A stretch of 64,000 nt of DNA from Candidatus Microgenomates bacterium (GTDB taxonomy: Bacteria; Patescibacteriota; Microgenomatia; UBA1400; UBA12108), in contig QEVC01000001.1 of assembly GCA_003576945.1 (NCBI GenBank), positions 26,129-90,128 of the forward strand, in the 5' to 3' direction. The notes under the pieces were generated by a model that was not told the origin of the DNA, did not search any database, and was given only the letters and a program-made list of their open reading frames with translations. The position numbers were made by a program, and so were the translations under genes. Positions within the stretch are counted from its first letter, which is position 1; each line of letters opens with the position of its first letter. Below are positions 27,610 to 58,701 of this stretch, one piece after another.

Positions 27610-29540
27610 GAGTTTTGAGTTGTTTTAGGCGATTGACTGATAGGCTCGGTTTTAGTGGGAGGTGCGGCTTGTGCTGGTTGTGCTGGCACAGTGTTTATTT
27701 TTTGAGAAAGGGCCGCCTGAGCTTGTTTAAACTGTTGGGCCTCTGCCTCTTCTTTTTTGCGGAGAGCCTCCCTAGGATCAGTGGTAATTAGAGCATGCTC
27801 CTCGGGGGAGGCCACGACGCGCATGGCAACGTGATTTTGGCCGGCGAAAAAGAGTGATTCACCGACTTCGGCAGTGAGGAGTAGATGTCGTTCTCCTTGG
27901 GAGAGATAGAAAACATTGGCTAGTTTTTCGATGGCACTGGTGCTTTGTTTCATTAAAACCTGAATGCTGGCGTTACTAACGATAGCCTTGCCATGATCAT
28001 CTTTTAAGAAATCTTCAACGTCTTGGGTGATGGTAGTGAGGCCTAAGAAATATTTACGTGCACGTTTGGCGATACCATAGAGAAAGGTGGCGGAGTCTTC
28101 GTTTTTCATAAGATACCAGGCCTCATCAACCACCAAGAGGCGTCGCTTGAGGTCTCTTTTTACTTTGGTCCAGATATAGTCAAGAATAATAAAAATGGCA
28201 GTGGGTCTGAGTTCATCCTGAAGGTTTTTGATGCCAAAAACGGTTAGTTGTTTGCCAAAATCGACATTGCTCTTTTGAGAGAAAATCCCTTGGAAACTAC
28301 CCTTAACATACTTCTCGAGGCGGTCGGCGAGACCGCGAGCCACGGCCTCTTCCATACCAACTAGCGCTTTGTAGAGATCTTCCATGAGGGGTGGCTCGTT
28401 CTTGTGCGTTGTTGGGTCTCGATTGATGCCCTTCATCTGATATGTCATAACGAGCGCTCGATCCAAAAGCGCTTCTTCTTGGGCGGTGACGTCGCCCAGC
28501 ATGATTTTGAGGAGGGAGTGAAGGGAGATGATTTTCATGGCGAGTTCGTTTTCGTCGGGTTCGGCGAGCTGGGGAAGCTCGAAGGGGTTAATACGGTTGG
28601 GGGAGGTAAAACTAAAGTCGATGTAGGTGCCGTTAACGGTCTGGGCCATTTTGCGATATTCGTCTTCGGGATCGATAATAATAACCTCGGTTTCGAAGAG
28701 GAGAGAGCGAAGAATTTCTAGTTTGACCATATAACTTTTACCGGAGCCCGACTTGGCAAAAACTACCATGTTAGCGTTCTCCAGACTAAAGCGATCAAAG
28801 ACAACGAGACTATCATTATGTTCGTTGATGCCATACATAATACCTTCGTTGGCGGTTAGCTCACTACTAGTAAAGGGGAAGGTAGTGGCGAGGCTAGTAG
28901 TGTCCATGTTGCGATTGATTTTTAAGAAATCTTTACCCATGGGGAGAGTGGTTTTAAAACCGTCTTCGATTTGAAGGGTAGCGGTTTTGGCGACGATTAG
29001 GAGAGCACCCAAGGTGGATTTGATGTGGTTGGTGACTTTGTCGAGCACGTCTCTTTTGTCATCACGAATGGTTATATAGAGACCAAACTGAAAAAAACGT
29101 TCGGCGCCTTTGGCAAGCTGCTCTTGTAGACTCCGAGCATCCTCTAGTTTGACCTGGGTATCAATATTAATAATCTTGCCACGCTGAATATCTCCCTGGA
29201 GCTCAGCTTCCATTTCGGCGATTTTGCGCCGCAAGTCCTCGATGACCCCCTTGCCGTCGACGGGATAAATAAACATTGAAATACTAAGAGAGTGGGGAAA
29301 ATTGATTAAGGGTGAGAGCCAGTTGGCGTTAACAAAGCGGGGGTAGCCGGCGACGAATAGAGTGCGGTAGTACGTGTCGTTGATTTTGACGTCAGACCAG
29401 TCGACCTCGATCGCCTCAGGAGCAATAATGTCTTTTACATTGGTGGTACCAGTTGCAAGGATTTGAATGGGGGGAGAGACCGCGGGACCCTGCTCTTCGG
29501 TTTTTTTGTTTTTGCCAGCAAAAGGAAAGGGCAAGTTCAT
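27606..29540 (-). CDS. VirB4/TraC-family T4SS ATPase (Gram-positive PrgJ/ConE-like) with a Pro/Gln-rich C-tail
   Basis: Walker A VVFAKSGSGKSYMV, a Walker B region, and N-terminal IAPEAIEVDWSDVKINDTYYRTLFVAGYPRFVNANWL typical of the VirB4 N-domain. Stop codons overlap dnaN convergently. Confidence 0.7.
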   Translation of the reverse strand: MNLPFPFAGKNKKTEEQGPAVSPPIQILATGTTNVKDIIAPEAIEVDWSDVKINDTYYRTLFVAGYPRFVNANWLSPLINFPHSLSISMFIYPVDGKGVIEDLRRKIAEMEAELQGDIQRGKIINIDTQVKLEDARSLQEQLAKGAERFFQFGLYITIRDDKRDVLDKVTNHIKSTLGALLIVAKTATLQIEDGFKTTLPMGKDFLKINRNMDTTSLATTFPFTSSELTANEGIMYGINEHNDSLVVFDRFSLENANMVVFAKSGSGKSYMVKLEILRSLLFETEVIIIDPEDEYRKMAQTVNGTYIDFSFTSPNRINPFELPQLAEPDENELAMKIISLHSLLKIMLGDVTAQEEALLDRALVMTYQMKGINRDPTTHKNEPPLMEDLYKALVGMEEAVARGLADRLEKYVKGSFQGIFSQKSNVDFGKQLTVFGIKNLQDELRPTAIFIILDYIWTKVKRDLKRRLLVVDEAWYLMKNEDSATFLYGIAKRARKYFLGLTTITQDVEDFLKDDHGKAIVSNASIQVLMKQSTSAIEKLANVFYLSQGERHLLLTAEVGESLFFAGQNHVAMRVVASPEEHALITTDPREALRKKEEAEAQQFKQAQAALSQKINTVPAQPAQAAPPTKTEPISQSPKTTQNS

Positions 29541-29709
29541 ATGGAATTAGTATAACGCAAGTTAAGGGGTTTTTGTTTTTGGTTCGGCGCATTCCACCAG
29601 AAAAAGCGGTCTATCTCCGCCTGGTGGCGGAGCGACCACGCGAATCGGTCTACCCGCCCTGCGCTAAATTTTTCTTTGTGAAATTGCGCCTGCACCATTT
29701 TACAAAAAC
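29541..29709 (-). repeat. Copy 1 of a roughly 120-nt conserved structured element in the 5' leader of the VirB4 gene
   Basis: Shares ggttcggcgcattccaccagaaaaagcggtctatct...gcccgccctgcgctaaatttttctttgtgaaattgcgc with 30349-30501. The internal hairpin CTCCGCC-TGGT-GGCGGAG becomes CTGAGTC-TGGT-GACTCAG in copy 2. Confidence 0.6.
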
Positions 29710-30348
29710 TTACTTGGCGATATTGGGGGCGACAACTGGCGTTTCATAGTCGGCGGCGGTAGTGAATTTTTGTCCCTTAACCGTGCTGTTATAGTAACCA
29801 TGAAAGAGCTTCATGAGGTTTTGGCTGTTTAGCTGTTGGGCGGTGAGACCAATACGGGTTAGCTGTTTAATAATATGGTCTCGTTTAGGTTCGAGATCTG
29901 CCTTGGCACGACTTAACAACTCTTCTGTTATTTCGACTTTGCCTGACAAGGTAACCATTTGGTAGGAAACGATAATATAAAACTTTTTATCGAGGACGTT
30001 TTGCTCCTGGATGGTGGTCTCTATAAAATTCCGGTACTGACTCATGCGTGTTTTCATGGTTTCGTCTTTTAGTTTTTTCTCCTGGGCAACGAGGAGTTCG
30101 AGGTAACTACTAATATCCTTTTTTTCAGACTTGATTACGATTTGAACGGGGAAACTAAGAGAGTTTAATAGACCGGCATAAGCATAGATGGTAGCGTCTT
30201 GCTCTTCCTCAGAGAGGAGGCCAAAGTTGATCGCGGAAGTTTGGATAACAACACTGATTAGGCCACCACGAAGCACAACAACATCGTCTTGAATGGTTTC
30301 TACTTCGAGGTGGTCTTGGGTGGTTGCGACAATAATAGAGTCGGACAT
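29710..30348 (-). CDS. Soluble protein with a VirB4-N-domain-like motif, function unknown
   Basis: VVVLRGGLISVVIQTSAINFGLLSEEEQDATIYAYAGLLNSLSFPVQIVIKS resembles the N-terminal module of Gram-positive VirB4 proteins. Inference only. Confidence 0.4.
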   Translation of the reverse strand: MSDSIIVATTQDHLEVETIQDDVVVLRGGLISVVIQTSAINFGLLSEEEQDATIYAYAGLLNSLSFPVQIVIKSEKKDISSYLELLVAQEKKLKDETMKTRMSQYRNFIETTIQEQNVLDKKFYIIVSYQMVTLSGKVEITEELLSRAKADLEPKRDHIIKQLTRIGLTAQQLNSQNLMKLFHGYYNSTVKGQKFTTAADYETPVVAPNIAK

Positions 30349-30501
30349 GATATTAGTATAACAGTTAGGGTTCGGCGCATTCCACCAGAAAAAGCGGTCT
30401 ATCTGAGTCTGGTGACTCAGCGACCTCGAGCTCGGGCTGCCCGCCCTGCGCTAAATTTTTCTTTGTGAAATTGCGCTTCACCCCTTTGTTAAGTTAACAA
30501 A
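30349..30501 (-). repeat. Copy 2 of the roughly 120-nt structured element in the 5' leader of the 212-aa gene
   Basis: See 29541-29709. There are compensatory substitutions in the hairpin. Confidence 0.6.
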
Positions 30502-31533
30502 CTAGGAGTTTGCCTGAATTTCAAATGGTTGGATAATTTGGTTTTGGACTATGAGTTGTTGGGCGGGAAAGGTGTGTCCATCCGCTTCAACCTCAATCCG
30601 GTACGTGCCGGGGGAGAGGGGCGTGCTGGTCGCAAATTGACCGAGAGCATTGGTTTTCATGGCTCGGGCGGGTACGCCGGTTCCATCTAGTACTTGAACA
30701 ATCGCGCCCTCGATAAGCTTGCCATCTTTACTAGTGGTGATCCCAACTATTAGGTTGGGACTACGGGGTGGGACGGGGAGGTTGATGGATTTTAGTTTGG
30801 TATTTGCGGCTGACTGTGGGGCGACCGCAACTGGTTTGGGGGATGCAGAAAAGATGAGGTTGTTGGGAACTGTAGCCTCTTGGGGTTTTTCGACTCTTGA
30901 TTTTGAGTCTACCACGGTAGTCGGTTGAACCTTAGGAACGACGATTGGCTTGGGAGGACTGACTGGAGGTGGAACTGTTTTTTCGGCGGCCTTTAATTTG
31001 CGGACAGTGATCGCCGGCTTGTCAAAAACGATGTCGGTTTGAGGTTTAGGGTCGGTAGTTGAGGTTATGGGCGCTGGGGCATTTGAAAAAAGAGTATTAA
31101 GCGATTTTACTTGAGAGTTTTCTGCATCACTGAGATCGGAGTCGGTGGCGAGAGAGACTTTTTGAGTAGGTGCCTTGATCGTTTTGGTGATAGTGTTAGT
31201 TGCGGCGATGGGATGGGCAGTAAAAGTAAAAATACTCGGAACCTTGTTGGTTTTTTTCCAGGTAAAGCGCGTGGGTTTGTAGATCGCATTTACAAAGTTA
31301 ATGATCCATTGGTCAAGGGGCCTGTCTTCGATGGGGAAAAATGCGAGGGCGATACCAAAGAAAACTGAAAGGAGAATCAAGGGAGCTTTAAAAATAAAAA
31401 GGAGATTACTACTATAGAAAAGGACGGCGAGGAGTAGGCCGGCGGCTAGTTCGAGAAACTGTTTGAGAGTCATGTCGCCCACGAGGCGGAACTGGTACTG
31501 GGTGACGTTTTGAGGGACAGGGTGCTGGTTCAT
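30502..31533 (-). CDS. Two-TM N-terminal (VirB3/PrgI-like?) membrane protein with a Pro-rich linker and a C-terminal beta-sandwich-like domain
   Basis: Start taken at ATG 31531-33 (MNQHPVPQNVTQYQFRLVGDMTLKQFLELAAGLLLAV...); the track used an upstream TTG. Two hydrophobic helices precede a PPVSPPKP linker. Confidence 0.4.
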   Translation of the reverse strand: MNQHPVPQNVTQYQFRLVGDMTLKQFLELAAGLLLAVLFYSSNLLFIFKAPLILLSVFFGIALAFFPIEDRPLDQWIINFVNAIYKPTRFTWKKTNKVPSIFTFTAHPIAATNTITKTIKAPTQKVSLATDSDLSDAENSQVKSLNTLFSNAPAPITSTTDPKPQTDIVFDKPAITVRKLKAAEKTVPPPVSPPKPIVVPKVQPTTVVDSKSRVEKPQEATVPNNLIFSASPKPVAVAPQSAANTKLKSINLPVPPRSPNLIVGITTSKDGKLIEGAIVQVLDGTGVPARAMKTNALGQFATSTPLSPGTYRIEVEADGHTFPAQQLIVQNQIIQPFEIQANS

Positions 31534-31580
31534 GAATATAGTATAAAGTACCAAGTAAAAAGTACCTAGTGTATGGGATT

Positions 31581-32189
31581 TTAGTTGGAGAAGGTGTAGG
31601 TGTGGCTGTCGGGGTCGAGACCATTTTCTTTGACCCAGTCGCGGACGGCGTTTATTATTTCACCGCGTTCTTCTACTCCAACTTTGAGGGTAATTTCGAG
31701 GTGCTTTGGACTTTTGTAGAGAATGGTAAAGCCAGGCGCCTCATATGGGATTTTGTTGGCCAAAGGATAATCACGCTTGATCTCGTCGACTACTTCTTGA
31801 TTGGCGCGGGGCTCGCTCTGTTGAGGAATAGTGGTAAAAGTGAGAGTTTTGAGGGGTTGATTGTTGTAGAAAATATTAAGCGTATATTCAGTATTTACGA
31901 ACAGGTATTTTTTTGACTGGAGCTTAACAATGTTGTTGGGAGCAGAGGTAATGTCCCAAGATTCTTCGGGGATAGAGGTAACTGACAAGAGATTGGGGTC
32001 GACGGCGGTAGCAAATTTAAGCTGAATAGGCTCGAGATAACTGACTTTGGTGGCGTAATCAGAAGGGATGGTGGCGAGAAGGGTGGGGAGGGGCGTGGGT
32101 GGAGTGATAAAGAACGAGAAGATTAATAAGCCGAGAGAGATAATAGCGAGAGCAATGAGAAAGGGTTTTTTGGTTAAGAAATGGAACAT
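31581..32189 (-). CDS. N-terminally anchored extracytoplasmic protein (possible VirB8-like role)
   Basis: 202 aa with a TM at residues about 9-30. Functional assignment is inference. Confidence 0.35.
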   Translation of the reverse strand: MFHFLTKKPFLIALAIISLGLLIFSFFITPPTPLPTLLATIPSDYATKVSYLEPIQLKFATAVDPNLLSVTSIPEESWDITSAPNNIVKLQSKKYLFVNTEYTLNIFYNNQPLKTLTFTTIPQQSEPRANQEVVDEIKRDYPLANKIPYEAPGFTILYKSPKHLEITLKVGVEERGEIINAVRDWVKENGLDPDSHTYTFSN

Positions 32190-32198
32190 AGGGTTAGT

Positions 32199-35087
32199 TT
32201 AGATTTTTTTAAGACAACCAGCAACCCGACTACTAAGCCAGGTACAACCATCGGGTCCGCGGACAACCCCGTTACCACCACCATTAGCGTCGGCACAGCG
32301 GATAGTGGCGCCGCCATTGTCAATAAACACGCCGACGTGGCCATAACCACCAGTAGTCGTATCGACAAAGAAATCTCCTGGACTACAACTACCGATGCCG
32401 AGGACGGGCTTGTAGCCGGTGGGTGGGCTCGCAAGCAGAGTTTTGGCGTCGCCAAAACCAGAACCAGCACCACCATTGGCGACGTCGATCGCGCGGACAA
32501 AACCTACACATTGGAGGTAGGTGTAATTGGTGGCCGACTCTTTTAAGACAGCAATAGCGCTTTGAGCGAGAGTGCTGGCGAGGACGCACTGCCAACTATT
32601 GCCGTTTGCGTTGCTGGAGGTGAGAGGGTTAATGCCACACTTGCTTAGTATCTCAACGATACAGGCGGCAGTCTGGATGCGTGAGTTATTTTTGCCCCCA
32701 CCTTCGCCACTATCACAGAGGAGACTACCTATAAATTGACCTGCGCCGGAGTCGAGACTGAGGTTGACGTCGAGACGAGTAGTAACATCTAGATCAGAAA
32801 GGTTAGTAATATTTACAAAACTCATTACCCCAATAATTATGAGAGCGAGCATAAGCGACCCTAGAGTCAATGTAAAAACTCCACCGAGAAATATTCCCAG
32901 GCCCGTAAATATGCCAGCAAACAATCTCCCAATATTAAGGGTTGCAAGGAAGGCAGATATTGCGAGTCCCCAACCCACAACAGTTTCTCGAAACCTGCCA
33001 TCTTTAAAGAATTTTTTGAGAAAACTCCAACCCGCAGAGATTAAGTCCAGGGCAAGACTACCCACAAAGAGTACTGTGCCGATAATAGTACCAGATGAGG
33101 CGATGGCACCAATCAGCTTAGCCCCAGTTTTGGCTAAAGCCTTACCCCCAATTTTGATTAAAAAGCGGGTAGTGGCGCGGCCTGCTTGGATCCCTACGTA
33201 TTTACCAACATCTGATAGTCCGACCTTAGCAAGACTCCACTTAATGGCTTTACCCCACTGCCTACTGGCAAAAGCCGTAGTGGCTCCACCAACTGTGTGT
33301 CCGCCTAGCTCAAAATATTTGAGACCCCAGTTGATGACTGGTCTGGCAGGCTCTAGGACAACTTTCCACCCTTTATACTTGCCTGCTCCTTCTGCTAGCC
33401 ACCTAGTCGTGGTGACTTTTTTCCATTCGTCTAAGCGATCTTGGATCCAGGGGGCAATGCGAAAGAGGGGGATTTTGGTACCAGGAATTGTGACGTGTTC
33501 GGCGATTTCGTCCCATTTATCAAAAGCTCTGTGGAGAAGTTTTTTGCCTGTGATGGTTTCTTCAAAATCGATCCAGGAGTCAAGAATTTTGGTTTGAGCT
33601 TCATAAAGGCGAGATCTAGCATCAAGTACGCGGCGACCCCAGTGTGCACGGGAGATTTCGCGACGTTCAATGGGAGTTAGGCTAGTATAATAACTAAGGT
33701 CAGCATTAAGATGTCGGGCATTAATAATAAAATCAACATCGATGTTTTTGCCAGGCTTATTACTTTCTGCCTGGTAGGCATCGTAGAGGTTGTCAAATTT
33801 TGTATTATTTTTTGTGTTGTAGGCGAGGAGGAGCTGATCCTTTTTGGTACTAAGCCTCGCTTCGGTTTTGAGATATTGATGTTCATCGCGGAGAAAGAGA
33901 GTGGGATTAATACCTTTTTGAACTAGACTCCATTCGCGGCGCGTAAGACGATAGTTGTTAAGAGTTTCGACTTTTTGATTTTGGATGTACTCGAGTGAGA
34001 CGTCAAACCCTTGATTTTTGATACTGCTGCCTAGGTCGGTGAGAATAGAGGGTGAAATACTTAACTGCTGGCCAGTAAGAGTCATTAATTCATCAAAACT
34101 GCGTTTTTCGGTAGCACTACTAGTGGTAGTTTTGAGGAGAGTGGTAACAAGACGCGTTCGATCCGTTTCATTTAGGTTAGGGAGCGCGGAGGAGAGGCGA
34201 GACTTTAGCTCTGTTTCGTTTAAGAGCTGAGAGGAGAGCGAGCGAGCCGCCTCGAGGCGACGCGTTTCGTAGGTTTCGACAAACTCATTACCACCAAACT
34301 CTTTGACTATATTGTTAACAAGTTCTCTGGTTTGACGACTAGTCTTTTCTTCTTTGACGTAGGTGAGGAGGTCGGAACTTTCGGGGTAGGACTGTTTAAT
34401 GAGATCAGTTAGTTTGGAAGCTACAGCAAAATCTTTAACTTGATCACTCCCACCAGTACTCCCGGCGGCATGGAGGTCGCTTAAGTTGGCGGTTATGATG
34501 CGGGCAAACTGGGCGCGGAGGGCGGCTTCGCTAATACTGGTTCTACCTGGGGGGAGAATATCTCTAATTAATTTTTGGGGAACGACACCAGTATTTGCAT
34601 ATTTGAGGGCCTCAAAATACATTTTTGTATAGAGGTCGTACTGCTTGCCGGGGTCGTAGGAGGATGTTTTGACGATCGCCACGTCGAGTTTTTTGGCACG
34701 GAGAGCAGCGATGTTTTCGATACGCGCGGCAGTTAAGAGTTTGTTGGGATCTTGGACTTCTTTGGCAAAAATGAGAGAGGCACTACGAGCAAACTCTTCT
34801 TCACTCTTAATTCTACCCAGCTTTTCTTGATCCTCTTTGTTAATGCCCTTGACGTAGATTAAGTAGTCGAGGACGAGCTGTTTTGCTTCGGTAATGCTAA
34901 TGTATTCGGGTTCTTGCCCATTATCGACTGGGAGAGATACACCGCGGCTACCACCGACTATTTCTGCCTGGGAGGAGAGCTGCTCTAGGAGCCATTCTTG
35001 GATGAATTGGCGATTGGCGCCTTCTGACAACCCTCGGTTGTTTTTATAAAAAGTGGATTGTTGGTAGGTGATGAGTCGACGAGCCAT
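32199..35087 (-). CDS. Large membrane-spanning protein with a C-terminal CHAP-domain peptidoglycan hydrolase (VirB1/PrgK-like role)
   Basis: 962 aa: an about 650-aa N-domain without a signal peptide, 3-4 TM helices (about 660-760), and C-terminal YLQCVGFVRAI...GDFFVD...GYGHVGVFID, the Cys/His CHAP catalytic pattern. Confidence 0.6.
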   Translation of the reverse strand: MARRLITYQQSTFYKNNRGLSEGANRQFIQEWLLEQLSSQAEIVGGSRGVSLPVDNGQEPEYISITEAKQLVLDYLIYVKGINKEDQEKLGRIKSEEEFARSASLIFAKEVQDPNKLLTAARIENIAALRAKKLDVAIVKTSSYDPGKQYDLYTKMYFEALKYANTGVVPQKLIRDILPPGRTSISEAALRAQFARIITANLSDLHAAGSTGGSDQVKDFAVASKLTDLIKQSYPESSDLLTYVKEEKTSRQTRELVNNIVKEFGGNEFVETYETRRLEAARSLSSQLLNETELKSRLSSALPNLNETDRTRLVTTLLKTTTSSATEKRSFDELMTLTGQQLSISPSILTDLGSSIKNQGFDVSLEYIQNQKVETLNNYRLTRREWSLVQKGINPTLFLRDEHQYLKTEARLSTKKDQLLLAYNTKNNTKFDNLYDAYQAESNKPGKNIDVDFIINARHLNADLSYYTSLTPIERREISRAHWGRRVLDARSRLYEAQTKILDSWIDFEETITGKKLLHRAFDKWDEIAEHVTIPGTKIPLFRIAPWIQDRLDEWKKVTTTRWLAEGAGKYKGWKVVLEPARPVINWGLKYFELGGHTVGGATTAFASRQWGKAIKWSLAKVGLSDVGKYVGIQAGRATTRFLIKIGGKALAKTGAKLIGAIASSGTIIGTVLFVGSLALDLISAGWSFLKKFFKDGRFRETVVGWGLAISAFLATLNIGRLFAGIFTGLGIFLGGVFTLTLGSLMLALIIIGVMSFVNITNLSDLDVTTRLDVNLSLDSGAGQFIGSLLCDSGEGGGKNNSRIQTAACIVEILSKCGINPLTSSNANGNSWQCVLASTLAQSAIAVLKESATNYTYLQCVGFVRAIDVANGGAGSGFGDAKTLLASPPTGYKPVLGIGSCSPGDFFVDTTTGGYGHVGVFIDNGGATIRCADANGGGNGVVRGPDGCTWLSSRVAGCLKKI

Positions 35088-35135
35088 AGGCTAATTGTAA
35101 CATTGCATCTGGTGTGGTGTGGTAGAATTGGAAGA

Positions 35136-38100
35136 ATGAACAGTGGTGAGCAAGAAAGCAACAAGAAGAATAAAAAAGAGGCGGAAAAAAAGAGCCCGAA
35201 TGCCGTTGAAAGCAAGGTTTCGATCGAGGAATTGTTGTTGGTAGTATTTGCGAGAAGAAGTGTAGAACAGTTAAAGGTAACTCTTGAGAGTGGCCAAAAA
35301 ATTAGTGACGAGGCGATGAAGATGATTGTTAAAAGGGTGTCGGGAGAGATTGATAACCAGGAGCAGAAGGATTTGCTTGGATTAATTGTTAAGCAGGTTG
35401 AGGGTAAAAAAGATGAGAGAGATATGGCTCGAGACAACCTTGCAAAACTACTGCAATTGCAGGATGAGAACTTGGTGGGCAAGAAAAAAACTAGCAAAAA
35501 GAAAAATGCCAAAAGTGAAAAACCTAGTAAAGGACAAGAGACTGACGCCGAAAAACTGATTTCTTTTGTAACTAAGGACAAGAAAGACATTAATCGTGAA
35601 GGTATAAGCACAATTTGGGCTGATACCGCAAAGGAACTTGGGAGGTTAAAAGAGAAGAGTGGGGGTGATCAAATTCGTGCAATTGAGAGCGCTATACACT
35701 CTTCGATGGTGAATACCAAGAATTCAATCGAAAAAGGACTAAATGAGCCAATGTCAAAAGAGAACAAGGAAGATATCCTTAAAGAAACTAAAAATCTTTA
35801 TGACAAATACGCAGAGAAAAATCAGCGCAGAAATATTGCTAAGTTGGGGTGGAGAGAGAGACAAGATTTAAAACGTGACAATATTGTCATCGGTCGAGGA
35901 ATGAAGATAGTTAATGATTTTGTCGAAATTGCTGGAGACGAAAAGAAGGTTAAAGATCTATTCAAAAAAAAGACACAAAAAGATTATCTGGAGCTATTCG
36001 CATTTATGGATCTAATGGAAGAAAAAGCTGACACGGAAAATTTTGCGGAACTATATGAAGTTTCAAGGCGGATACAGGAATCTTGGGATCAGAATATCGT
36101 AGAGGAAACTAGGGAAAGTTCTAGGAAACTTACAGATGAAGATAGACAGGAAGTTAAGAAGCGCGTGAAGAAGCAGGAAATACCAGAGCTTGAACGAGTA
36201 GAAGACATGGTGAACTGGTTAATCGACAACAACGTTTTAAATGACGAGATGGCTAGTAGGATGAGTGAGGAGCAGATCCTAGACTTTTATCGGAACCTAA
36301 AAGATACTTTAGAGATGCGGGCTAGCGGATACTCGATTGGTGGCGGCGCTGAGCGATATCGCAATGTCGATTATGCAAAATATTTGCCAGAGCTTAATGA
36401 GGCAATAAAAAAGAAATGGCGCGAAGCAGGTCTTGATGTTGGTAAGTTGGGAGAGGCAATTCCCGACATAGAGGCAATATTGAACGGGTCGAAAGATGCG
36501 TTTGTAAATACGAATTTACCACTAGAGGCTAAAAAAATACTTGAGGATGTAATATTTCAGGAACTTTTACAGGGGGCCAGGGTTTTGGTTAGTGAGTCAG
36601 TTGATCGAAACATGATGTATTACGATAATCGGGCGACGAAATACCTCACCCTCTTAGCTTTGAGAGGACTAGATACTACCCTAAAAGATACGGTCACTAA
36701 CCACATGATATTACAGCAGTTATCTTTTGCGTGGCGCAATGGCTACGTGGATGAAGAATTGTATGGGAAAGTAATGGATTTTTGGTCGAGACAAGGACCA
36801 GAGTACCGTTTATTTGAAGAGATGAAGCGGAATGAAACGGTATTGATTAAAGACAAAGAAGGTAAAGAGGTCTTAGTTTCGCTAGAGTTAAACATGCACG
36901 ATTTTGAGGGGACAATGGCTCAGAATGTGGCAGATGAGGATAAAGAAGCGGTGGGAATGCCATTAGATATAGATAGATCCTGGGGAACTGTCGCCGCGCG
37001 GAAAACAGAAAAAGAATCAATGAAGTCTGATCGAAGAGTCCTTACTCGACGAGCCCTGATTAATAAATATGGAATAGACGAATATAATCGGTTGGCAAAG
37101 AAAGCTGGTGGAGAGGAAAACCTAGTAGGTCAAATCGTTGACAACTACGGAGATTATATAAACAGGGTATATCTTTACTGGATTGGTACAGGACGACTTG
37201 GCGAGATAGTGGGTAACGCATCGTTTGATAACAACAAGTTTGATTTACCACAAGGCATTCCAGAGTATTATATGAAACGTGATCCAAGATTGTTAGTTTG
37301 GTTTTTGTGGAAGTACACACCAGTACGAGTGCCAGAGGCGCTTTTTGGTTTAGCTCGGATGGGACTTCCCTCGTTCCATGCCGCAAACAAGGGCGAGAGT
37401 GCAGCACATTTTATAGGTACTAGAGACACAACAGAGGGCGGAGCTGGGTCACGTCGAGCGTTTTACGACAACAATAGCGATAAGTTTACCAGCGTCCAAC
37501 TAGATAAGTTTTCGGAGAAGTTTGCAAAAGTATTTAAAAAAGCATTGTATAACGATGACGAGTTTACATATAGTGAGAAGAATCCCTATTTTAAAGCGAT
37601 TTCTCACTTGCAATCGGATAAGTATAACCCCCGACGAAACAATACTGAGACTATAGATATACTATTGGGCTTTGAGGCTACTGAAAAAGATGATAACTTC
37701 TTTGAGGCAATATCTTGGGAATGGGCTAAATTACATTATTCCCACGACAAACAGCTTGTTAATTTCTTAAATTCCAAAGCTAGTGGTCGCGATAAATTTA
37801 AGTTTTTTGCTAAACGATTTAATGACGGATTCTTCTTAACGACTGCGCTTAAGGCTAAGCGGGGAGATGATGCCAAGAAATATAGATTCAACTATCAGGG
37901 CGAGGACATGAAAGCGGTTATTGAATACGCCAATAACCCCGAGCCTGAGAACTTAATGAAGATATTGTCAATTGTGGCGAGTATTGTAGGGGACGAAATT
38001 GGTGAGGCGCGTGACGCTAATCTAGAGATAGCGTATGAAATACTTAAGGAGCGGGAGGTTGGAGAGGCATTAGATGTTATTAAATATAATGGGGGGTCGG

Positions 38101-38588
38101 TGGCATTTAGTAATAAAGATTATGTCGGGGCAAATAAGGGCGAGTTCCCATTACCAGAAATGACGAAAGTTCCACATAACCCGCTTGACAAAGACATTCC
38201 CACTCATAGTACGGCGGCATATCGTGGACTAGAGCATAAAGTGTATGAGGGGGAAATGTTAATGAAGGTATTAATGCGCAATGCGAGGGCGGCTAATCTA
38301 TATAGAGACGACCATGAATATCGAGAAAAGCGAAAAGAAGCAAAATTGGAATACTTTAAGGAATCTTTACCACGACTTCATTGGGATAACAAGATTGCGT
38401 GGTACTGGAATGTTCTGAATAACGGAAAGCATTTATGGGATGTAGTGACCTTTAAGAAACTTACAAACTATATCGCGATAGAGATATTCCAATTACCACC
38501 CCACTTATTCTGGGAGTGGCTTTTTGAAAATAGTGAAAAATCATGGGAAACTACCATGAAAGTTTTTGCAGGACACGGTGGTCACTAA
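35136..38588 (+). CDS. Giant hydrophilic protein of unknown function (about 1150 aa, Lys/Glu-rich N-terminus)
   Basis: Uninterrupted ORF. The start is moved to ATG 35136 (MNSGEQESNKK). No TM, Walker or nuclease motifs recognised. Divergently transcribed from the CHAP-protein operon. Confidence 0.45.
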   Translation: MNSGEQESNKKNKKEAEKKSPNAVESKVSIEELLLVVFARRSVEQLKVTLESGQKISDEAMKMIVKRVSGEIDNQEQKDLLGLIVKQVEGKKDERDMARDNLAKLLQLQDENLVGKKKTSKKKNAKSEKPSKGQETDAEKLISFVTKDKKDINREGISTIWADTAKELGRLKEKSGGDQIRAIESAIHSSMVNTKNSIEKGLNEPMSKENKEDILKETKNLYDKYAEKNQRRNIAKLGWRERQDLKRDNIVIGRGMKIVNDFVEIAGDEKKVKDLFKKKTQKDYLELFAFMDLMEEKADTENFAELYEVSRRIQESWDQNIVEETRESSRKLTDEDRQEVKKRVKKQEIPELERVEDMVNWLIDNNVLNDEMASRMSEEQILDFYRNLKDTLEMRASGYSIGGGAERYRNVDYAKYLPELNEAIKKKWREAGLDVGKLGEAIPDIEAILNGSKDAFVNTNLPLEAKKILEDVIFQELLQGARVLVSESVDRNMMYYDNRATKYLTLLALRGLDTTLKDTVTNHMILQQLSFAWRNGYVDEELYGKVMDFWSRQGPEYRLFEEMKRNETVLIKDKEGKEVLVSLELNMHDFEGTMAQNVADEDKEAVGMPLDIDRSWGTVAARKTEKESMKSDRRVLTRRALINKYGIDEYNRLAKKAGGEENLVGQIVDNYGDYINRVYLYWIGTGRLGEIVGNASFDNNKFDLPQGIPEYYMKRDPRLLVWFLWKYTPVRVPEALFGLARMGLPSFHAANKGESAAHFIGTRDTTEGGAGSRRAFYDNNSDKFTSVQLDKFSEKFAKVFKKALYNDDEFTYSEKNPYFKAISHLQSDKYNPRRNNTETIDILLGFEATEKDDNFFEAISWEWAKLHYSHDKQLVNFLNSKASGRDKFKFFAKRFNDGFFLTTALKAKRGDDAKKYRFNYQGEDMKAVIEYANNPEPENLMKILSIVASIVGDEIGEARDANLEIAYEILKEREVGEALDVIKYNGGSVAFSNKDYVGANKGEFPLPEMTKVPHNPLDKDIPTHSTAAYRGLEHKVYEGEMLMKVLMRNARAANLYRDDHEYREKRKEAKLEYFKESLPRLHWDNKIAWYWNVLNNGKHLWDVVTFKKLTNYIAIEIFQLPPHLFWEWLFENSEKSWETTMKVFAGHGGH

Positions 38589-38618
38589 TAGTTTTCTAAA
38601 GGTTAAATTGTGAGAAGA

Positions 38619-40127
38619 CTATTTTTTACTAGCAAGATCTTTTATTCCTGCCGCCATTTGTTTTTGGTAATCGAGCTGTCTTGTTGCTTCGCGTTGGTGT
38701 TCTAGGCTTGTCTTCCAGCCATAGGCTGTCTTACCTAGTGCCATGGCTCCACCTAAGCCAGCGCCGATCTCGCTGGTGTATGGAGATTCTTTGACCTGGA
38801 GCCAGTCCATCGCCATCTTGGCAGCGGCGGGGGTCATGGTAAAGATAAAGAATCCGATTAGTCCCATTAGATCGTTGGCTTGGAGATCAGTACCAGTAAG
38901 GGTGAAGGGTGGGAGCCACATCGCGCCATCGTCTCCTGTTTGAGCATAGAAAGAACTACTACTATCGATACCAAATGGATTACCATCGACACCAAAAGCG
39001 CCGGTGTTCCAGAGCGTGGATTTGGAGGGATCACCGACAAGTATGGCGGCAAAAATAAACATAGCGGCGACTACTGGGAAGGGGAGGAGATAGCTAGCAG
39101 TTTTTTTGAGCCATTCGGAGAAGGCTTTGCTACCAGGCATGGCGTTCATGAGGATTTGGATCGGAGCGGTTACTGTCTGGATAATTAACATTACATAAGC
39201 TTTGACTAAGACAAAGAGCAGCTTAATCATTGTGACTCCGAGCCAGACTGCGGCGATAAGGGCGGAGGGGGAGAAGATGGCGACCCCTTTGCCAATAAAT
39301 CCAGTTAGGCCATCACCAACACCTGAGAGGAGCCTGTCAGAGGCAGCGGCGACTGCCCAGATGACACTATTACGGCCAGAAAAGATTACACTCCACGCTG
39401 ATCCACCCAAGAGACGACTAATTGCGTCGACGGGAGTTCCAATAATACCAATAGTGCTGAGTAGATAAACCAGGAAATAGATCAGAAAATACATGATGTC
39501 GATCATAAAGCCGACTATGGCATAGCTAAAAGTGATAAGAAGGAGAGTGATTAGGAGGTTGGGGAGTGCGGCTTGGATAGTGATGACAGTCTGAGCATTA
39601 ATTTTGGTTCTGAGCATGATCATGATACCTACCACCACAAACATTACGATATAAAGTGCGTAGGCGACGTTGCGAAAACCTTTCCAGAATTCGAGAAACG
39701 GTCCCATGGCGGCATACCCAGTACCTTGAGCGTAGGCGCGTGGAGCCAGAGTGGGGAGACCAATATTGTTGGCAATGTCAGCTAGATATTGTTGACTAGT
39801 GATCCCGTTTTGAAACAGAGAAGCCACCATTTTTCCCGACTGTGGTAGGAGTGCTGCAGTATTACAATTTTTACCGCTCGCATCTTGTAATCCACCAATC
39901 ATAAGAACTGGGGTAGCGATAAGAGTAATGGGTTGGCGCCCTGGTTTGTAGTCACTCTCACCACCATCTGTTTCATATTCACTGAGATCACAGTTGCCAA
40001 CACTACCAAATTCGTATTTAAAAAGATTGTTTGGTGTATTACCAGATACATCAGAAATTGATGCATGTGTGGATTGTGGTATAGCTAAAGTAAGTATTAC
40101 ATAAGCCAGAAGGAGAAATTTTTTCAT
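38619..40127 (-). CDS. Polytopic membrane protein with signal peptide (VirB6/TrbL-like candidate)
   Basis: 502 aa with signal peptide MKKFLLLAYVILTLAIPQSTHA and at least 6 TM helices. The assignment is by position. Confidence 0.45.
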   Translation of the reverse strand: MKKFLLLAYVILTLAIPQSTHASISDVSGNTPNNLFKYEFGSVGNCDLSEYETDGGESDYKPGRQPITLIATPVLMIGGLQDASGKNCNTAALLPQSGKMVASLFQNGITSQQYLADIANNIGLPTLAPRAYAQGTGYAAMGPFLEFWKGFRNVAYALYIVMFVVVGIMIMLRTKINAQTVITIQAALPNLLITLLLITFSYAIVGFMIDIMYFLIYFLVYLLSTIGIIGTPVDAISRLLGGSAWSVIFSGRNSVIWAVAAASDRLLSGVGDGLTGFIGKGVAIFSPSALIAAVWLGVTMIKLLFVLVKAYVMLIIQTVTAPIQILMNAMPGSKAFSEWLKKTASYLLPFPVVAAMFIFAAILVGDPSKSTLWNTGAFGVDGNPFGIDSSSSFYAQTGDDGAMWLPPFTLTGTDLQANDLMGLIGFFIFTMTPAAAKMAMDWLQVKESPYTSEIGAGLGGAMALGKTAYGWKTSLEHQREATRQLDYQKQMAAGIKDLASKK

Positions 40128-40141
40128 AGATTAGTGCGATT

Positions 40142-40687
40142 TTAGCGCAGTAGGCCAAGTTTATCTACCCATTCGTTGGCGGTGACGCGGACGTAATCAG
40201 CTTGACCGTAATCAAATAGGAGTTGTTTGGGTTCGATGCCGGACTCGCGGAGGAGCTGGAGAGCTTTGGTAAAGGTCTCTTGAAAAGCCTGGAGATTAGG
40301 ATTTTTCTCGGGATCGAGCTCGTCTTTGTTGAGATAGGAGAGGCCAGTAATGTCGAGGCGCGTGAGAGAGGGCTCGGTCGGGTGAAGAGTGATGTCGATA
40401 CTAGTATCGATACCCACGGAGGTTTTGAAATTGCGCATCCTGATCGGGAGGCGATCTGCGATAAGAGTGCGGTAACTGATGGCGTTATTTACTTTTTCCT
40501 CGGTGAGATTGGTAAAGTCGGAGAAGGGGTTATTGTTTGAGGATTGTTCTTGTGGGGTGCTAACTGGCGTGGGATTAGGGGTGCGTGAACTAAAGATTAA
40601 AACTAAAAAAAGAATAATGATCGAAATAGAAACGGCGGTTAGGAGAAATTTGTTGGTAAAGAGACGTTTGGTGAGTTGTTGTAGCAT
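40142..40687 (-). CDS. N-terminally anchored small protein, paralogue of 41914-42432
   Basis: Start moved to MLQQLTKRLF... so it matches the paralogue. The shared block is NLTEEKVNNAISYRTLIADRLPIRMRNFKTSVGIDTSIDI...LSYLNKDELDPEKNPN. Confidence 0.45.
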   Translation of the reverse strand: MLQQLTKRLFTNKFLLTAVSISIIILFLVLIFSSRTPNPTPVSTPQEQSSNNNPFSDFTNLTEEKVNNAISYRTLIADRLPIRMRNFKTSVGIDTSIDITLHPTEPSLTRLDITGLSYLNKDELDPEKNPNLQAFQETFTKALQLLRESGIEPKQLLFDYGQADYVRVTANEWVDKLGLLR

Positions 40688-40704
40688 AAGATTTAGTATA
40701 CAGA

Positions 40705-41841
40705 CTAACTGAGTAGTTGTGGGAGTGTCTGGAGGGCTTGTTTGATGGGTAATATCTGAATGTTTTCGATTTTTCTTTCCCGTTCTCCGCCATAAAAGAC
40801 AAAACACTTGGCAGATGGATATTCGGAGTAAAAAGTTTTGAGACCACGTATATCTTTTAGACTCACTTTATCCGAGTGTTTGACCTCGATGGCTATTAAA
40901 CCTGAGTTGCCATATAGAATAAAGTCTACTTCTACTCCATGAGTAGTACGCCAAAAGAATACGTTGTAATCAAGCTCCAAATTTGAGACGATTGCATTTA
41001 AGTTTTGCCAGACTAAACTTTCCCAGGCTATTCCTTCGATTTCATGGGGACTGTTAAGTGGGCCACTCGGCCTAAGAGTTTGGTAGATTCCAACATCGAA
41101 GAAGTAAAATTTGTTGTGAGAAACGAGTTTTCTTTTTGATTTGTGGGTAAAGACTGGGAGACGAGATGCAACGAGCAAATCTTCGAGAATACTAAGGTAG
41201 TTTTCGACAACCTTTCGCTCGATCATTGCTTCGCGAGCGATCTCTGAGGTGTTAATCAGCGAACCCTGAGAGTAGCTTATTGTTTCGAGAAATCTTGCAA
41301 AAGCACCAATGTTGCGAGTTAATCCTTCCTGCTTTACTTCCTGGGTGAGATAGGTGTTGACATAGCTCTCGAGATATTTCTTTGGATATTTGGTTGTTTG
41401 AGTGGTGGGTAACAGTCCATATTTTACTGCCTTTTTAAAGTCAAAATCTTTGCCTAGTTCGACTGCGCTTAAGGGTAGTAGATTATAGGTGAGCGCGCGA
41501 CCTGCAAGAAGATTAACACCACTTTTTCGTAATTTGCGTGCACTACTACCAGTTAAAACAAATTGATAGTGATGTGATTCGATTAGGCGATGTACTTCGT
41601 GCAGCAATTCGGGGATGCGTTGAATTTCGTCGAGAATAACTGGACTTTTGTTGTTGAAAGGAATTATCTCATCTAGTCTGCTAGGATTGGCTACTAATTC
41701 GTTGTAAACCCTAGCCTCTAGAAGATCCAAATATAGAGCATTGGGATATTTCTGACGCACTAAAGTAGTTTTTCCTGCCCCGCGAGGCCCAAGTAGGAAG
41801 ATGCTTTCATCGCGAGGTAAAACGATATTTCTGGAATACAT
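40705..41841 (-). CDS. AAA+ ATPase, DUF4143 family
   Basis: Walker A LLGPRGAGKTTLV, plus a C-terminal domain typical of DUF4143 proteins. Confidence 0.7.
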   Translation of the reverse strand: MYSRNIVLPRDESIFLLGPRGAGKTTLVRQKYPNALYLDLLEARVYNELVANPSRLDEIIPFNNKSPVILDEIQRIPELLHEVHRLIESHHYQFVLTGSSARKLRKSGVNLLAGRALTYNLLPLSAVELGKDFDFKKAVKYGLLPTTQTTKYPKKYLESYVNTYLTQEVKQEGLTRNIGAFARFLETISYSQGSLINTSEIAREAMIERKVVENYLSILEDLLVASRLPVFTHKSKRKLVSHNKFYFFDVGIYQTLRPSGPLNSPHEIEGIAWESLVWQNLNAIVSNLELDYNVFFWRTTHGVEVDFILYGNSGLIAIEVKHSDKVSLKDIRGLKTFYSEYPSAKCFVFYGGERERKIENIQILPIKQALQTLPQLLS

Positions 41842-41913
41842 AACTCCATTTTAACCAAATATTTGGAGTTGTCAACTCCAAATATTTGCTTGTTAGTACA
41901 AATAGAACTCGAG

Positions 41914-42432
41914 TTAGCGAAGAAGGTCTAGTTGTTCTACCCAGTAGGTGGCGGTGGTGTGTATATCTGTTCGGTCGCCATAACTAAAAATGAATTGGGT
42001 AGGATCGGCACCAGACTCACGAATGAGGGATAGCGCGCGGGCGTAGCTCTCGGCAAAGGCGATGATATTGGGGTTCTTTTTAGGGTCGAGTTCATCTTTG
42101 TGAAGGTAACTTAGACCGTAGATCTCGAGACGCATGAGGGAGGGATCGTCGTCACTGAGTGAGTAAATGTTAATAGTCGTGGTGATGCCAACGCTGGTTT
42201 TGAAGTCTTTGAGATAGATTGGGAAGCGATCCTGGACGAGCTTGCGGTAGTTTATGGCATTTTTTACTTTTTCCTCTGTGAGGTTAGTTAGTTCGGCGCG
42301 GAGCTGCGTGGTCGTGGGTTCGGGTGGGGGAGAAGAGAGAGGCGGGGTGGTCTTTCGTGGGGAGATGATAAGTATGAGTATTAGGATGAAAATTGAGATC
42401 GAGAAAGCGATGATAAAGAATTTTTTATTCAT
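41914..42432 (-). CDS. N-terminally anchored small protein, paralogue of 40142-40687
   Basis: RAELTNLTEEKVKNAINYRKLVQDRFPIYLKDFKTSVGITTTINI...LSYLHKDELDPKKNPN. Confidence 0.45.
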   Translation of the reverse strand: MNKKFFIIAFSISIFILILILIISPRKTTPPLSSPPPEPTTTQLRAELTNLTEEKVKNAINYRKLVQDRFPIYLKDFKTSVGITTTINIYSLSDDDPSLMRLEIYGLSYLHKDELDPKKNPNIIAFAESYARALSLIRESGADPTQFIFSYGDRTDIHTTATYWVEQLDLLR

Positions 42433-42433
42433 A

Positions 42434-45312
<2,879 letters not shown>

Positions 45313-45316
<4 letters not shown>

Positions 45317-45600
45317 GATTGGAAGCCAAAGTTGAATTGAGTAACTGGAGCGCCGGTTAGGTTTTCGATGAGGAGGAGAATGAGCCAGGAGATAATCGCG
45401 AGGGCGAGGCCGCCGACAGCGAGACCAATAGTTTGTTTACCACCTTGTAATCCCTTGGGATCACCACCGCTCGTTAGGATTTTGAAGCCACCGACTAAGA
45501 TCATAATAAAAGCAATCATGCCAATTAAAGGGATTATGGCTGATAAAACATTGCCAAAGTAGTCTGGTAGTTGATCGAGGCGTGCGGCGTCTGAGTCCAT
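45313..45600 (-). CDS. Small two-TM VirB2/TrbC-like (pilin-like) protein, array member 1
   Basis: 95 aa: hydrophobic helix, FKILTSGGDPKG loop, second helix LAVGGLALAIISWLILLLIENLTG. The 4-nt overlap (ATGA) with the upstream gene suggests translational coupling. Confidence 0.5.
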
Positions 45601-45614
45601 GTTTGTAATTATAG

Positions 45615-45646
45615 TACAAAAACCCCGCTTACGCGGGGTTTATTGC
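45615..45646 (-). terminator. Rho-independent terminator inside the pilin-like array
   Basis: CCCCGC-TTAC-GCGGGG hairpin. On the minus strand it is followed by TTTTTG. Confidence 0.5.
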
Positions 45647-45666
45647 ATTGTTTGTAACAAAAAGTC

Positions 45667-46020
45667 TTAGTAAGCAGTTGGAGGAGTGATGTTGTCGTTG
45701 AGGATCGAGATACCAAAGAAGTATTGGATGATCAACATGACGGCCCAGGCGGAGGCGACGACGGCGAGACCGACGAGTGCAGCGGTGATACGATCGCGCG
45801 CTTCTTGGGTTTTACCTTTATCTCCACCACTAGTGATCCATTGAATACCACCCCAGATGAGGTACATAAAGACGAGGAGCGCAGAGACGAGGAGAGCGCC
45901 TTGGACGGCACCTTTGATCAACGTTCCAATATTGGTGATTGCGACGTTATCTGGCTTGCCGATTGAGAGATCTGGAGCAGCTGGTGCAGCCATAACTTTT
46001 TCAACGATTGAGAATGACAT
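45667..46020 (-). CDS. Small two-TM pilin-like protein, array member 2
   Basis: ...YLIWGGIQWITSGGDKGKTQEARDRITAALVGLAVVASAWAVMLIIQYFFGI. Confidence 0.5.
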   Translation of the reverse strand: MSFSIVEKVMAAPAAPDLSIGKPDNVAITNIGTLIKGAVQGALLVSALLVFMYLIWGGIQWITSGGDKGKTQEARDRITAALVGLAVVASAWAVMLIIQYFFGISILNDNITPPTAY

Positions 46021-46040
46021 ATTTATCTCCTTATGTATTA

Positions 46041-46069
46041 GTACTTAGTACATAGTACATGGTACATGG
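46041..46069. repeat. GTACATAG-type 8-nt periodic repeat immediately upstream of array member 2
   Basis: gtacttagtacatagtacatggtacatgg. Related copies at 22235-22250, 46811-46833 and 53188-53216. Confidence 0.5.
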
Positions 46070-46109
46070 TTATAATTCTAGTATTTCTGATTATAGCAAT
46101 AATATTAAG

Positions 46110-46454: not shown

Positions 46455-46467
46455 AAAGTTTTTGAAG

Positions 46468-46863: not shown

Positions 46864-46865
46864 AT

Positions 46866-47228: not shown

Positions 47229-47234
47229 AGGTTA

Positions 47235-47570: not shown

Positions 47571-47574
47571 AATT

Positions 47575-58654: not shown

Positions 58655-58701
58655 TCGTAAATCCGTAGAGCAGTATATCCGTTTATCTGTGTATCTCTGT
58701 G

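Follow-up and report, generated by a model that had tools for sequence, protein, structure and literature searches.

Clusters encoding MPF-FATA-like type IV secretion systems (T4SS) have been described in Patescibacteria (Quinonero-Coronel et al. 2025, PMC12102498), among them the cluster SEML1_0006-0019 of Southlakia epibionticum (Wang et al. 2023, PMC10633639). S. epibionticum, which belongs to the only Patescibacteria amenable to genetics, requires the T4SS for its growth as an epibiont (PMC10633639). No relaxase belongs to the Patescibacteria system, for which protein export or some other role has been proposed (PMC10633639, PMC12102498). Here we analyze a cluster of this kind in 64,000 nucleotides (nt) of contig QEVC01000001.1 from a Candidatus Microgenomates bacterium, hereafter the window. 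Our subject is one open reading frame (ORF) of this cluster, whose product of 1150 amino acids (aa) we call the target. The target keeps its position in the T4SS cluster across relatives and is by far the most variable element there, and we tentatively read it as a protein that the system exports.

The locus is an MPF-FATA-like, relaxase-less, origin-proximal Patescibacteria T4SS. Like the described clusters, it has a monoderm-type VirB4 with an adjacent TrsD, a PrgI/VirB3 protein, a polytopic protein in the VirB6 position, a cell-wall hydrolase and VirB2-like pilins. Likewise, it lies in the vicinity of dnaA and dnaN and has no relaxase or coupling protein nearby. Its arrangement differs from that of S. 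epibionticum, where genes 0006-0013 lie on one strand, the large proteins are hydrolases or membrane proteins, and no large soluble gene lies on the opposite strand. Such a gene is not described in either paper (PMC10633639, PMC12102498), and a full-text literature search on effectors of the Patescibacteria T4SS returned no other relevant paper. The T4SS type was already known; the two papers do not cover the protein in this slot, its class-wide position, its hypervariability, the exchange of cassettes or the fold of the slot class to which the target belongs (class 0).

A conserved slot with a hypervariable gene

The target gene sits between two T4SS operons of the minus strand. The left operon is VirB4-TrsD-PrgI-Big5-CHAP, directly preceded by dnaN and dnaA. 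The right operon holds mem500, p181, p955 and six VirB2-like pilins, and the gene for a sigma factor of the extracytoplasmic function (ECF) type comes next. A preliminary description of this DNA had paired the target with a T4SS-like operon; it is indeed divergent from the CHAP operon, but it lies between two operons and not at an edge.

35136-38588, plus strand: target gene (class 0 slot protein), ATG at 35136, stop codon ending at 38588, 1150 aa
35088-35135: divergent spacer of 48 base pairs (bp), common to the target and CHAP-protein genes
32199-35087, minus strand: CHAP protein, 962 aa, first gene of the VirB4-side operon (Pfam CHAP, E 1.4e-5)
27606-32189, minus strand: core T4SS genes, VirB4 to Big5
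38619-40127, minus strand: mem500, a polytopic membrane protein of 502 aa, convergent with the target across a 30-bp gap
40142-47877, minus strand: rest of the right operon, p181 through the pilins

Ten full-length relatives have sufficient DNA on their flanks, and each of them is located in the same slot, with identities to the target down to 19-25%. The shared order is dnaA and dnaN, then VirB4, TrsD, PrgI, Big5 and a CHAP protein of ~950 aa, then the target. It is followed by a membrane protein of ~500 aa, a protein of ~181 aa, a protein of ~955 aa, the pilin array and the sigma factor.

We surveyed the slot in 80 species loci from GTDB genomes, using TrsD as the anchor and defining the slot by its adjacency to mem500 (individual loci are given below as L numbers). 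The named loci all belong to Microgenomatia (Woese-, Gottesman-, Collier-, Beckwith-, Ames- and Chisholmbacteria). An ORF of 729-1328 aa on the opposite strand, with its stop codon -4 to +123 bp from that of mem500, is present in 28 of the 30 loci with mem500; in the two exceptions the slot ORF is interrupted by masked bases. The slot ORFs are mostly free of transmembrane (TM) segments, consist of 15-23% Lys plus Glu, are low in Cys and occur as a single gene per locus. The preliminary description had proposed to follow conservation and co-occurrence in related genomes, and both the ten syntenic relatives and the analogous ORFs bear out a link with the locus. The sequence itself is missing from many orthologous loci of close relatives. 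One of these is L022, where TrsD is 98% identical to that of the window and no target is recognizable, yet an analogue fills the slot. Because the slot always stays filled, a missing target sequence points to hypervariability rather than to a dispensable gene. The slot gene can be found reliably by its position alone, and its orphan status is a consequence of hypervariability.

The divergence among slot ORFs reaches the point where similarity disappears. A hidden Markov model (HMM) of the target family recognizes only two of them, and an iterative HMM search adds none. BLAST clustering yields at least nine mutually unrecognizable classes, and eight other class representatives have no match in Pfam or among PDB sequences. 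Class 3 alone links to class 0 (hhalign E 5e-5 and 1e-4), through a C-terminal stretch of ~250 aa that reaches both C-termini. Class 5 occurs in genomes with a TrsD 97-98% identical to that of the window and has no detectable similarity to the target. Furthermore, classes 0, 3 and 5 are interleaved on a tree of VirB4 and TrsD.

Mean pairwise identities over seven syntenic loci are 82% for VirB4, 77% for TrsD, 56% for DnaN, 55% for PrgI, 53% for mem500, 47% for p955, 44% for p181, 34% for the CHAP protein, 30% for Big5 and 25% for the target. In four close genomes DnaN is 73-90%, VirB4 94-97% and TrsD 97-100% identical, and the target only 23-36%; for the window and L019 the values are 90%, 94%, 100% and 23%, respectively. 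Identity of every other gene of the locus follows that of DnaN (Spearman 0.72-0.91), whereas the value for the target is 0.17 (p = 0.45).

The divergence is confined to an island, delimited by blastn against L022, L040, L019 and L013 and by block-wise protein identities:

32780-39050: hypervariable island, ~6.3 kilobases (kb), spanning ~770 N-terminal aa of the CHAP protein, the spacer, the target in full and the last ~145 aa of mem500

The two edges are reproducible: similarity to the DNA of close relatives breaks off within the CHAP gene at ~32,753-32,785, where the N-terminal domain of ~770 aa has its boundary, and resumes within mem500 at ~39,028-39,058. The target lies at the center of the island. 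Steady fast drift was considered as the cause of this divergence and rejected. Compared with a 91%-identical allele (L020), the target shows saturated synonymous sites and a nonsynonymous divergence (dN) of 0.071, below that of its neighbors in the same comparison (mem500 0.115, p181 0.151). The large differences fall between discrete, old allele types.

The allele of the window has moved between genomes. Loci L001-L005 come from five independent sequencing runs, share the same junction and encode an identical target protein, and in the DNA of TrsD, VirB4 and dnaN they differ from the window by 8-13%. The following block is identical:

31581-42432: exchanged block, Big5 through p172 including the target, 0 nt differences from L001-L005

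Identity across these positions beside genes that differ by 8-13% (VirB4 DNA by ~12%) shows that strains have recently exchanged ~11 kb with the target inside. The breakpoint lies within ~30,350-31,580 (TrsD to Big5), where PrgI is a mosaic; the differing side comprises dnaA, dnaN, VirB4 and TrsD.

The target gene and its product

The target is a genuine gene, strongly constrained within one allele type, as indicated by purifying selection and a confident fold. A spurious or decaying ORF might have been suspected from its biased composition and from the lack of a database family, but this is hardly credible and was ruled out: selection is purifying (dN 0.071 with saturated synonymous divergence), the identical protein is encoded on 17 or more contigs drawn from many samples, the fold of the product is confidently predicted, and the start and promoter are conserved. 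A longer frame starting with TTG at 35058 was rejected, since it would overlap the start of the divergent gene and the conserved promoter; the N-termini of homologues favor the ATG at 35136.

The preliminary description had reported a very large, uninterrupted ORF rich in Lys and Glu, with no TM segment and no recognizable enzymatic motif, and each of these points holds. The coordinates are exact, Lys makes up 10.7% and Glu 10.2% of the protein, and the grand average of hydropathy is -0.74. The highest Kyte-Doolittle value over 19 residues is 1.19, below that of a TM segment, and no signal peptide is present. A scan for Walker A, HExxH, CxxC and comparable motifs was negative, and neither internal repeats nor a heptad-type coiled coil were found. 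Searches of Pfam, NCBIfam, PHROGs and PADLOC returned no match, nor did PDB sequences, searched with the protein and with its profile; a housekeeping homologue, which the description had named as one finding that would count against its proposal, did not emerge.

The same description had called the protein an orphan, which is right in that no catalogued family includes it and wrong in that it has relatives. When the full-length protein or its whole alignment serves as the query, word-indexed searches recover only the target itself, probably because Lys/Glu-rich words saturate the list of candidates. The identical protein (DPW11_01015, from a metagenome-assembled genome (MAG) labelled 'bacterium') is found on the 17 or more contigs mentioned above, which stem from many sequencing runs. 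An exhaustive phmmer scan of 1.84 billion representatives gave 13 relatives, and a profile of the C-terminal module added three; one relative comes from a MAG labelled Candidatus Microgenomates. The relatives, about 20, all align to residues ~440-1150 only, dividing the protein into two parts:

35136-36452, plus strand: N-terminal region, aa 1-439, Lys/Glu-rich, predicted all-helical, barely alignable
36453-38585, plus strand: conserved C-terminal module, aa 440-1150, from AlphaFold2 and the conservation profile

The N-terminal region varies in length among relatives (340-550 aa) and has a mean pairwise identity of 12%, vs 24% for the C-module; its helical assignment comes from DSSP on a low-confidence model only. 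Within the C-module the best-conserved windows are aa 476-525, 676-725 and 876-925, marked by the motifs RATxYxTL, VGNAS/PxGxPE and AKRGDDxxKY; further motifs are GPEY, GExPxP, PPxxFxEW and a terminal WKYFNG(G/H). Sixteen residues, most of them polar, are invariant: R482, K517, E567, D589, Y671, Y681, N694, P705, E710, K714, K887, K908, D911, K915, Y916 and S1025. We suggest that the polar ones mark a binding or catalytic site.

AlphaFold run on the full protein from its single sequence gave an unusable model, with a predicted local distance difference test score (pLDDT) of 37. AlphaFold2 with an alignment of 18 sequences, applied to aa 440-1150 (711 aa), gave a mean pLDDT of 83.8 and a predicted TM-score (pTM) of 0.83. 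The modelled C-module is globular and mostly alpha-helical, with two small beta-sheets. Remote homology and fold comparison, proposed in the preliminary description as a way to place the protein, gave no PDB-profile match and no significant fold match in PDB or BFVD; resemblances to tape-measure proteins were non-significant (E > 2). As modelled, the C-module is a new fold, with no relative in either structure collection.

Expression of the target may be joined to that of the machine. A 48-bp promoter region shared with the CHAP operon had been described previously, and it is exactly that length, with two conserved extended -10 elements:

35120-35128, plus strand: extended -10 element TGgTAGAAT of the target, ending 7 nt before the ATG
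35094-35102, minus strand: extended -10 element TGTTACAAT of the CHAP-protein operon, ending 6 nt before the ATG at 35087

The spacer measures 42-52 bp in all but one of the relatives' loci, and the -10 element of the target is kept in six loci whose target proteins are only 23-43% identical. Such spacing leaves no room for a Shine-Dalgarno sequence, so we infer that the mRNAs of the target and CHAP genes are leaderless. The arrangement of the elements indicates that the target is co-transcribable with the machine from back-to-back promoters. A similar habit, with leaderless organization as the norm, is found in the genome at large: 25 of the 52 genes in the window have a TAnnnT box beginning between -15 and -12 relative to the start codon, vs 6.1 expected.

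The box stands exactly at -12 in 15 of those 25 genes, usually without a Shine-Dalgarno sequence. Examples of boxed upstream regions are those of genes 8544-9572, 14446-15336, 27606-29540, 29710-30348 and 47575-47877; among the T4SS genes, VirB4, TrsD and Big5 each have a box of their own. A consensus scan for promoters and terminators in the window gave counts at chance level and missed promoters without a -35 element.

A palindromic hairpin, TCATGGGAAACTACCATGA, lies at 38541-38559, within the last 50 coding nt of the target, and is followed by T-runs on both strands. It is situated ~60 nt downstream of the mem500 stop codon and could terminate transcription of the mem500 operon, which runs towards the target; terminator-like sites in the window are not more numerous than chance.

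Possible roles of the target

The linkage of the target to the T4SS is strongly supported. The reading that we tentatively prefer, and regard as quite possible, is that the target is a dedicated, diversifying T4SS substrate that acts at the cell surface or in a host. It is favored because extreme divergence, independent of phylogeny, is found beside the conserved VirB4 and TrsD, because the alleles form discrete classes, and because cassettes are exchanged. Components of secretion systems and phages that are hypervariable in a fixed position, such as effectors, tips, adhesins, rulers and tail fibers, are exported or contact the target cell. This parallel favors a substrate here as well. The preliminary description had offered a substrate or effector, or a scaffold: its connection with the T4SS stands, supported by the common slot of the ten relatives, and of its two alternatives we favor the substrate and think a scaffold-like adaptor rather unlikely.

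In the proposed mechanism the target would be made in the cytoplasm, as the lack of a signal peptide and of TM segments suggests. Its mRNA, presumably leaderless, would start from the extended -10 promoter that stands back-to-back with that of the CHAP-VirB4 operon, so that joint expression is possible. The protein would combine a variable, helical, Lys/Glu-rich N-terminal region with a globular module of ~700 aa carrying a putative binding or catalytic site. A T4SS with neither coupling protein nor relaxase might have the target as its dedicated substrate and export it to the surface of the epibiont or into the host bacterium. Conflict with targets or defenses of the host could then maintain many deeply divergent allele classes, and alleles may move between strains by homologous recombination, for which conserved stretches of the flanking genes for the CHAP protein and mem500 would provide the homology arms. 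We infer export, the targeting of a host and the reason for diversification.

Several observations weigh against a substrate. A C-terminal secretion signal had been suggested as something to look for, and no canonical T4SS signal is present: in nine members the last 30 aa are aromatic-rich with a net charge of 0 to -2, unlike the Arg-rich signals of VirB/D4-type systems or the Glu-rich ones of Dot/Icm-type systems. The last 60 aa are 25% identical family-wide, no better than the module (24%). By Pfam, no coupling protein (VirD4/TcpA), chaperone or adaptor was found in ~29 larger ORFs of the window and the T4SS-cluster genes. The island also spans the N-domain of the CHAP protein, which is probably cytoplasmic, and the mem500 tail, as would fit a co-evolving cytoplasmic complex. 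Most slot classes have no demonstrated homology to the target, and a single function for all of them is an assumption. The target has no Cys (P = 1e-3 for 1150 aa) and the family has 0-2 per ~1100 aa vs 0.59% in the window proteome, but VirB4 likewise has none, which makes this depletion weak evidence for a substrate.

Some narrower identities were also examined. The extreme C-terminus as the best-conserved part of the protein was rejected, as this rested on a block of ten residues and fails family-wide. Pfam detects no BID or XVIPCD domain in the target. A polymorphic toxin finds no support: Pfam, NCBIfam and PDB searches showed no toxin or N-terminal trafficking domain in the target or in the eight other class representatives, and no cognate immunity gene is adjacent, the slot holding one gene with gaps of 48 and 30 bp. 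A VirD4-type coupling protein is likewise not indicated, as the target has no Walker A motif, TM segment or match to a P-loop family. Homologues of the coupling protein in Patescibacteria are usually encoded far from virB4 (PMC12102498), and here 64 kb are visible.

A substrate ranks first among the explanations, a co-evolving cytoplasmic adaptor or receptor second, and a ruler or tip and unrelated cargo are less likely. The second would be an accessory that is never exported, namely an adaptor, a gate or a substrate receptor in place of the coupling protein, docked on the CHAP N-domain and the mem500 tail. It would account for a protein with no signal peptide, TM segment or canonical C-terminal signal in a cluster with no VirD4-type coupling protein. 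The composition of the island (exactly the target, CHAP N-domain and mem500 tail) is what co-adapted partners would lead one to expect, and a conserved divergent promoter allowing co-transcription and exactly one copy per locus suit it too. We nevertheless consider it rather unlikely. Docking on a machine with VirB4 and TrsD conserved at 94-100% is at odds with 23% identity in the target, and replacement by unrecognizable classes in near-identical genomes is unexpected for a docked part. Co-variation with the supposed partners is loose, since the target falls to 27-36% where the CHAP protein and mem500 stay at 65-80% (L013, L017 and L019), and the target has no Walker motifs.

An exported assembly factor, either ruler- or tape-measure-like or a tip or adhesin of the VirB2-like pilus, seems improbable to us. 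Rulers of type III secretion systems and phage tape-measure proteins are secreted early, keep their position and diverge quickly in sequence, and the target resembles them in its fixed slot, its hypervariable sequence and a long, helical, Lys/Glu-rich N-terminal region of variable length; a pilin array and a large pilin-like protein belong to the same cluster. However, two thirds of the target form a compact globular module (pTM 0.83) and not an extended helix, no heptad coiled coil or repeats are present, and the tape-measure matches do not rise above noise. More improbable still is selfish, defense or anti-defense cargo unrelated to the T4SS, sitting in a recombination hot spot inside the cluster. 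The locus does recombine, and it contains an unrelated AAA_14/DUF4143 insertion (PDC-S01, E 4e-60), with a 29%-identical counterpart at the corresponding site of L020. But the slot is filled class-wide, in 28 of 30 loci, by a single gene of constant orientation and similar size and composition, no integrase, transposase or repeat marks its borders, and the conserved promoter is shared with the operon of the machine. With no PADLOC or PHROG match, a defense system was rejected as a reading of the target.

Returning to the preferred substrate reading, known systems offer partial parallels. CagA of the Helicobacter pylori cag T4SS is a dedicated protein substrate that acts in eukaryotic cells; its C-terminal signal is basic, and it has a chaperone of its own, CagF. 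Like the target it is a hydrophilic, lineage-restricted protein of ~1200 aa with a fold of its own, encoded as a separate unit in a T4SS island and diverse in its alleles. The two have no similarity in sequence or fold, and a basic C-terminal signal, a CagF-like chaperone and eukaryotic action are not seen for the target. Variable effectors are also encoded beside secretion genes in the ess locus of the type VII secretion system (LXG proteins and EsaD), as cargo of the type VI secretion system and as X-Tfe proteins with XVIPCD in Xanthomonas. The slot shares with these a large, strain-variable protein flanked by conserved machine genes, recombining classes, and a conserved recognition part joined to variable parts. 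Those effectors, however, have LXG, PAAR/MIX or XVIPCD domains, toxin domains and immunity genes, none of which was detected with the target.

For TraG of the F plasmid, it has been proposed that the C-domain reaches the recipient cell and sets specificity. The target is similar to such extensions of the VirB6 family (F TraG and the VirB6 paralogues of the Rickettsiales Rvh system) in being large, hydrophilic, fast-evolving and coupled to VirB6. They are fused and membrane-anchored, whereas the target is encoded on its own, by a gene that converges with the one in the VirB6 position, and homology was not detected. The primases Sog and TraC1 and the protein ArdC are large soluble proteins co-transferred by conjugative T4SS. 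Like them, the target exceeds 1000 aa, is synthesized in the cytoplasm and is encoded in or beside transfer genes. They carry primase, helicase or anti-restriction domains and accompany DNA, unlike the target, which has no such motifs and belongs to a relaxase-less system.

A broader proposal, which we hold to be doubtful, is that one T4SS-delivered slot protein per genome of Microgenomatia, possibly also of other classes of the candidate phyla radiation (CPR), sets which host bacteria can be exploited, through many ancient allele classes with new folds that are shuffled between strains. If true, this would make the slot a locus of host range or compatibility in CPR episymbiosis. The slot protein is a concrete Microgenomatia candidate both for CPR T4SS cargo and for a host-specificity locus, and a single class-wide gene makes both questions testable by following slot alleles.

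Neighboring genes and further observations

The remaining genes of the locus are as follows:

24920-27609: dnaA and dnaN
27606-29540, minus strand: VirB4 (NCBIfam NF045971 conju_CD1110, 401.8 bits with a cut-off of 325; Pfam P-loop_TraG, E 1.7e-28)
29710-30348, minus strand: TrsD-like protein (NF041427, E 5.6e-6)
30502-31554, minus strand: PrgI/VirB3-like protein (PF12666, 30 bits with a cut-off of 27)
31581-32189, minus strand: bitopic Big_5 protein (Big5)
40142-40687, minus strand: p181, a bitopic protein of 181 aa
42434-45316, minus strand: p955, a secreted protein of 960 aa with a pilin-like C-terminus
45667-47877, minus strand: six VirB2-like pilin paralogues

The CHAP protein begins with a long N-terminal domain that has neither TM segments nor a signal peptide; TM segments follow at ~aa 657-766 and then a C-terminal CHAP domain (VirB1-like hydrolase). 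The mem500 protein has no Pfam match and appears to occupy the VirB6 position. T4SS_pilin (PF18895) was matched in three of the small paralogues tested, in two of them above the cut-off.

Besides a signal peptide, the p955 protein has a pair of C-terminal TM segments that resemble those of pilins, and its 24 Cys make up 2.5% of its residues, vs 0.59% in the window proteome. Compared with its counterpart in L019, its N-terminal ~600 aa are 73-100% identical and its C-terminal third only 30-60%, a pattern that is the reverse of what is expected for an exposed adhesin.

The AAA_14/DUF4143 ATPase gene (40705-41841, minus strand) is inserted in the right operon between two paralogues of ~181 aa (40142-40687 and 41914-42432, both minus strand) that share 65.7% nt identity. 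It corresponds to the PADLOC defense candidate PDC-S01 at the E value given above and, apart from the version in L020, is absent from the other relatives' loci.

In the survey, an opposite-strand ORF beside PrgI in Gottesmanbacteria (cluster 2) was considered as a slot class and excluded, since it is ClpB/ClpC. In loci of this Gottesmanbacteria type (L045-L049, L052, L054, L059 and L067) ClpB/ClpC stands beside PrgI and mem500 was not detected nearby; the cluster there is split or differently arranged. The VirB4 ORF measures ~1200 aa, against the usual ~630, in L026 (10722-14330), L071 (10669-14307), L087 (1970-5611) and L099 (1233-4895). A fusion, or an insertion such as an intein or an extra domain, may account for this rough doubling in several Microgenomatia species. 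Many locus contigs among L025-L101 are titled 'uncultured Pseudomonadales bacterium', 'Gammaproteobacteria' or 'Spirochaetia', and are probably mislabelled.

Both flanks of dnaA/dnaN (24.9-27.6 kb) have a positive GC skew, so that the usual switch at a dnaA-linked origin is not seen within the window; the skew changes sign only near 60 kb. ARAGORN reported no tRNA or transfer-messenger RNA (tmRNA) in the 64 kb, and Rfam placed a tmRNA gene at 58699-59112 on the minus strand (88.5 bits).

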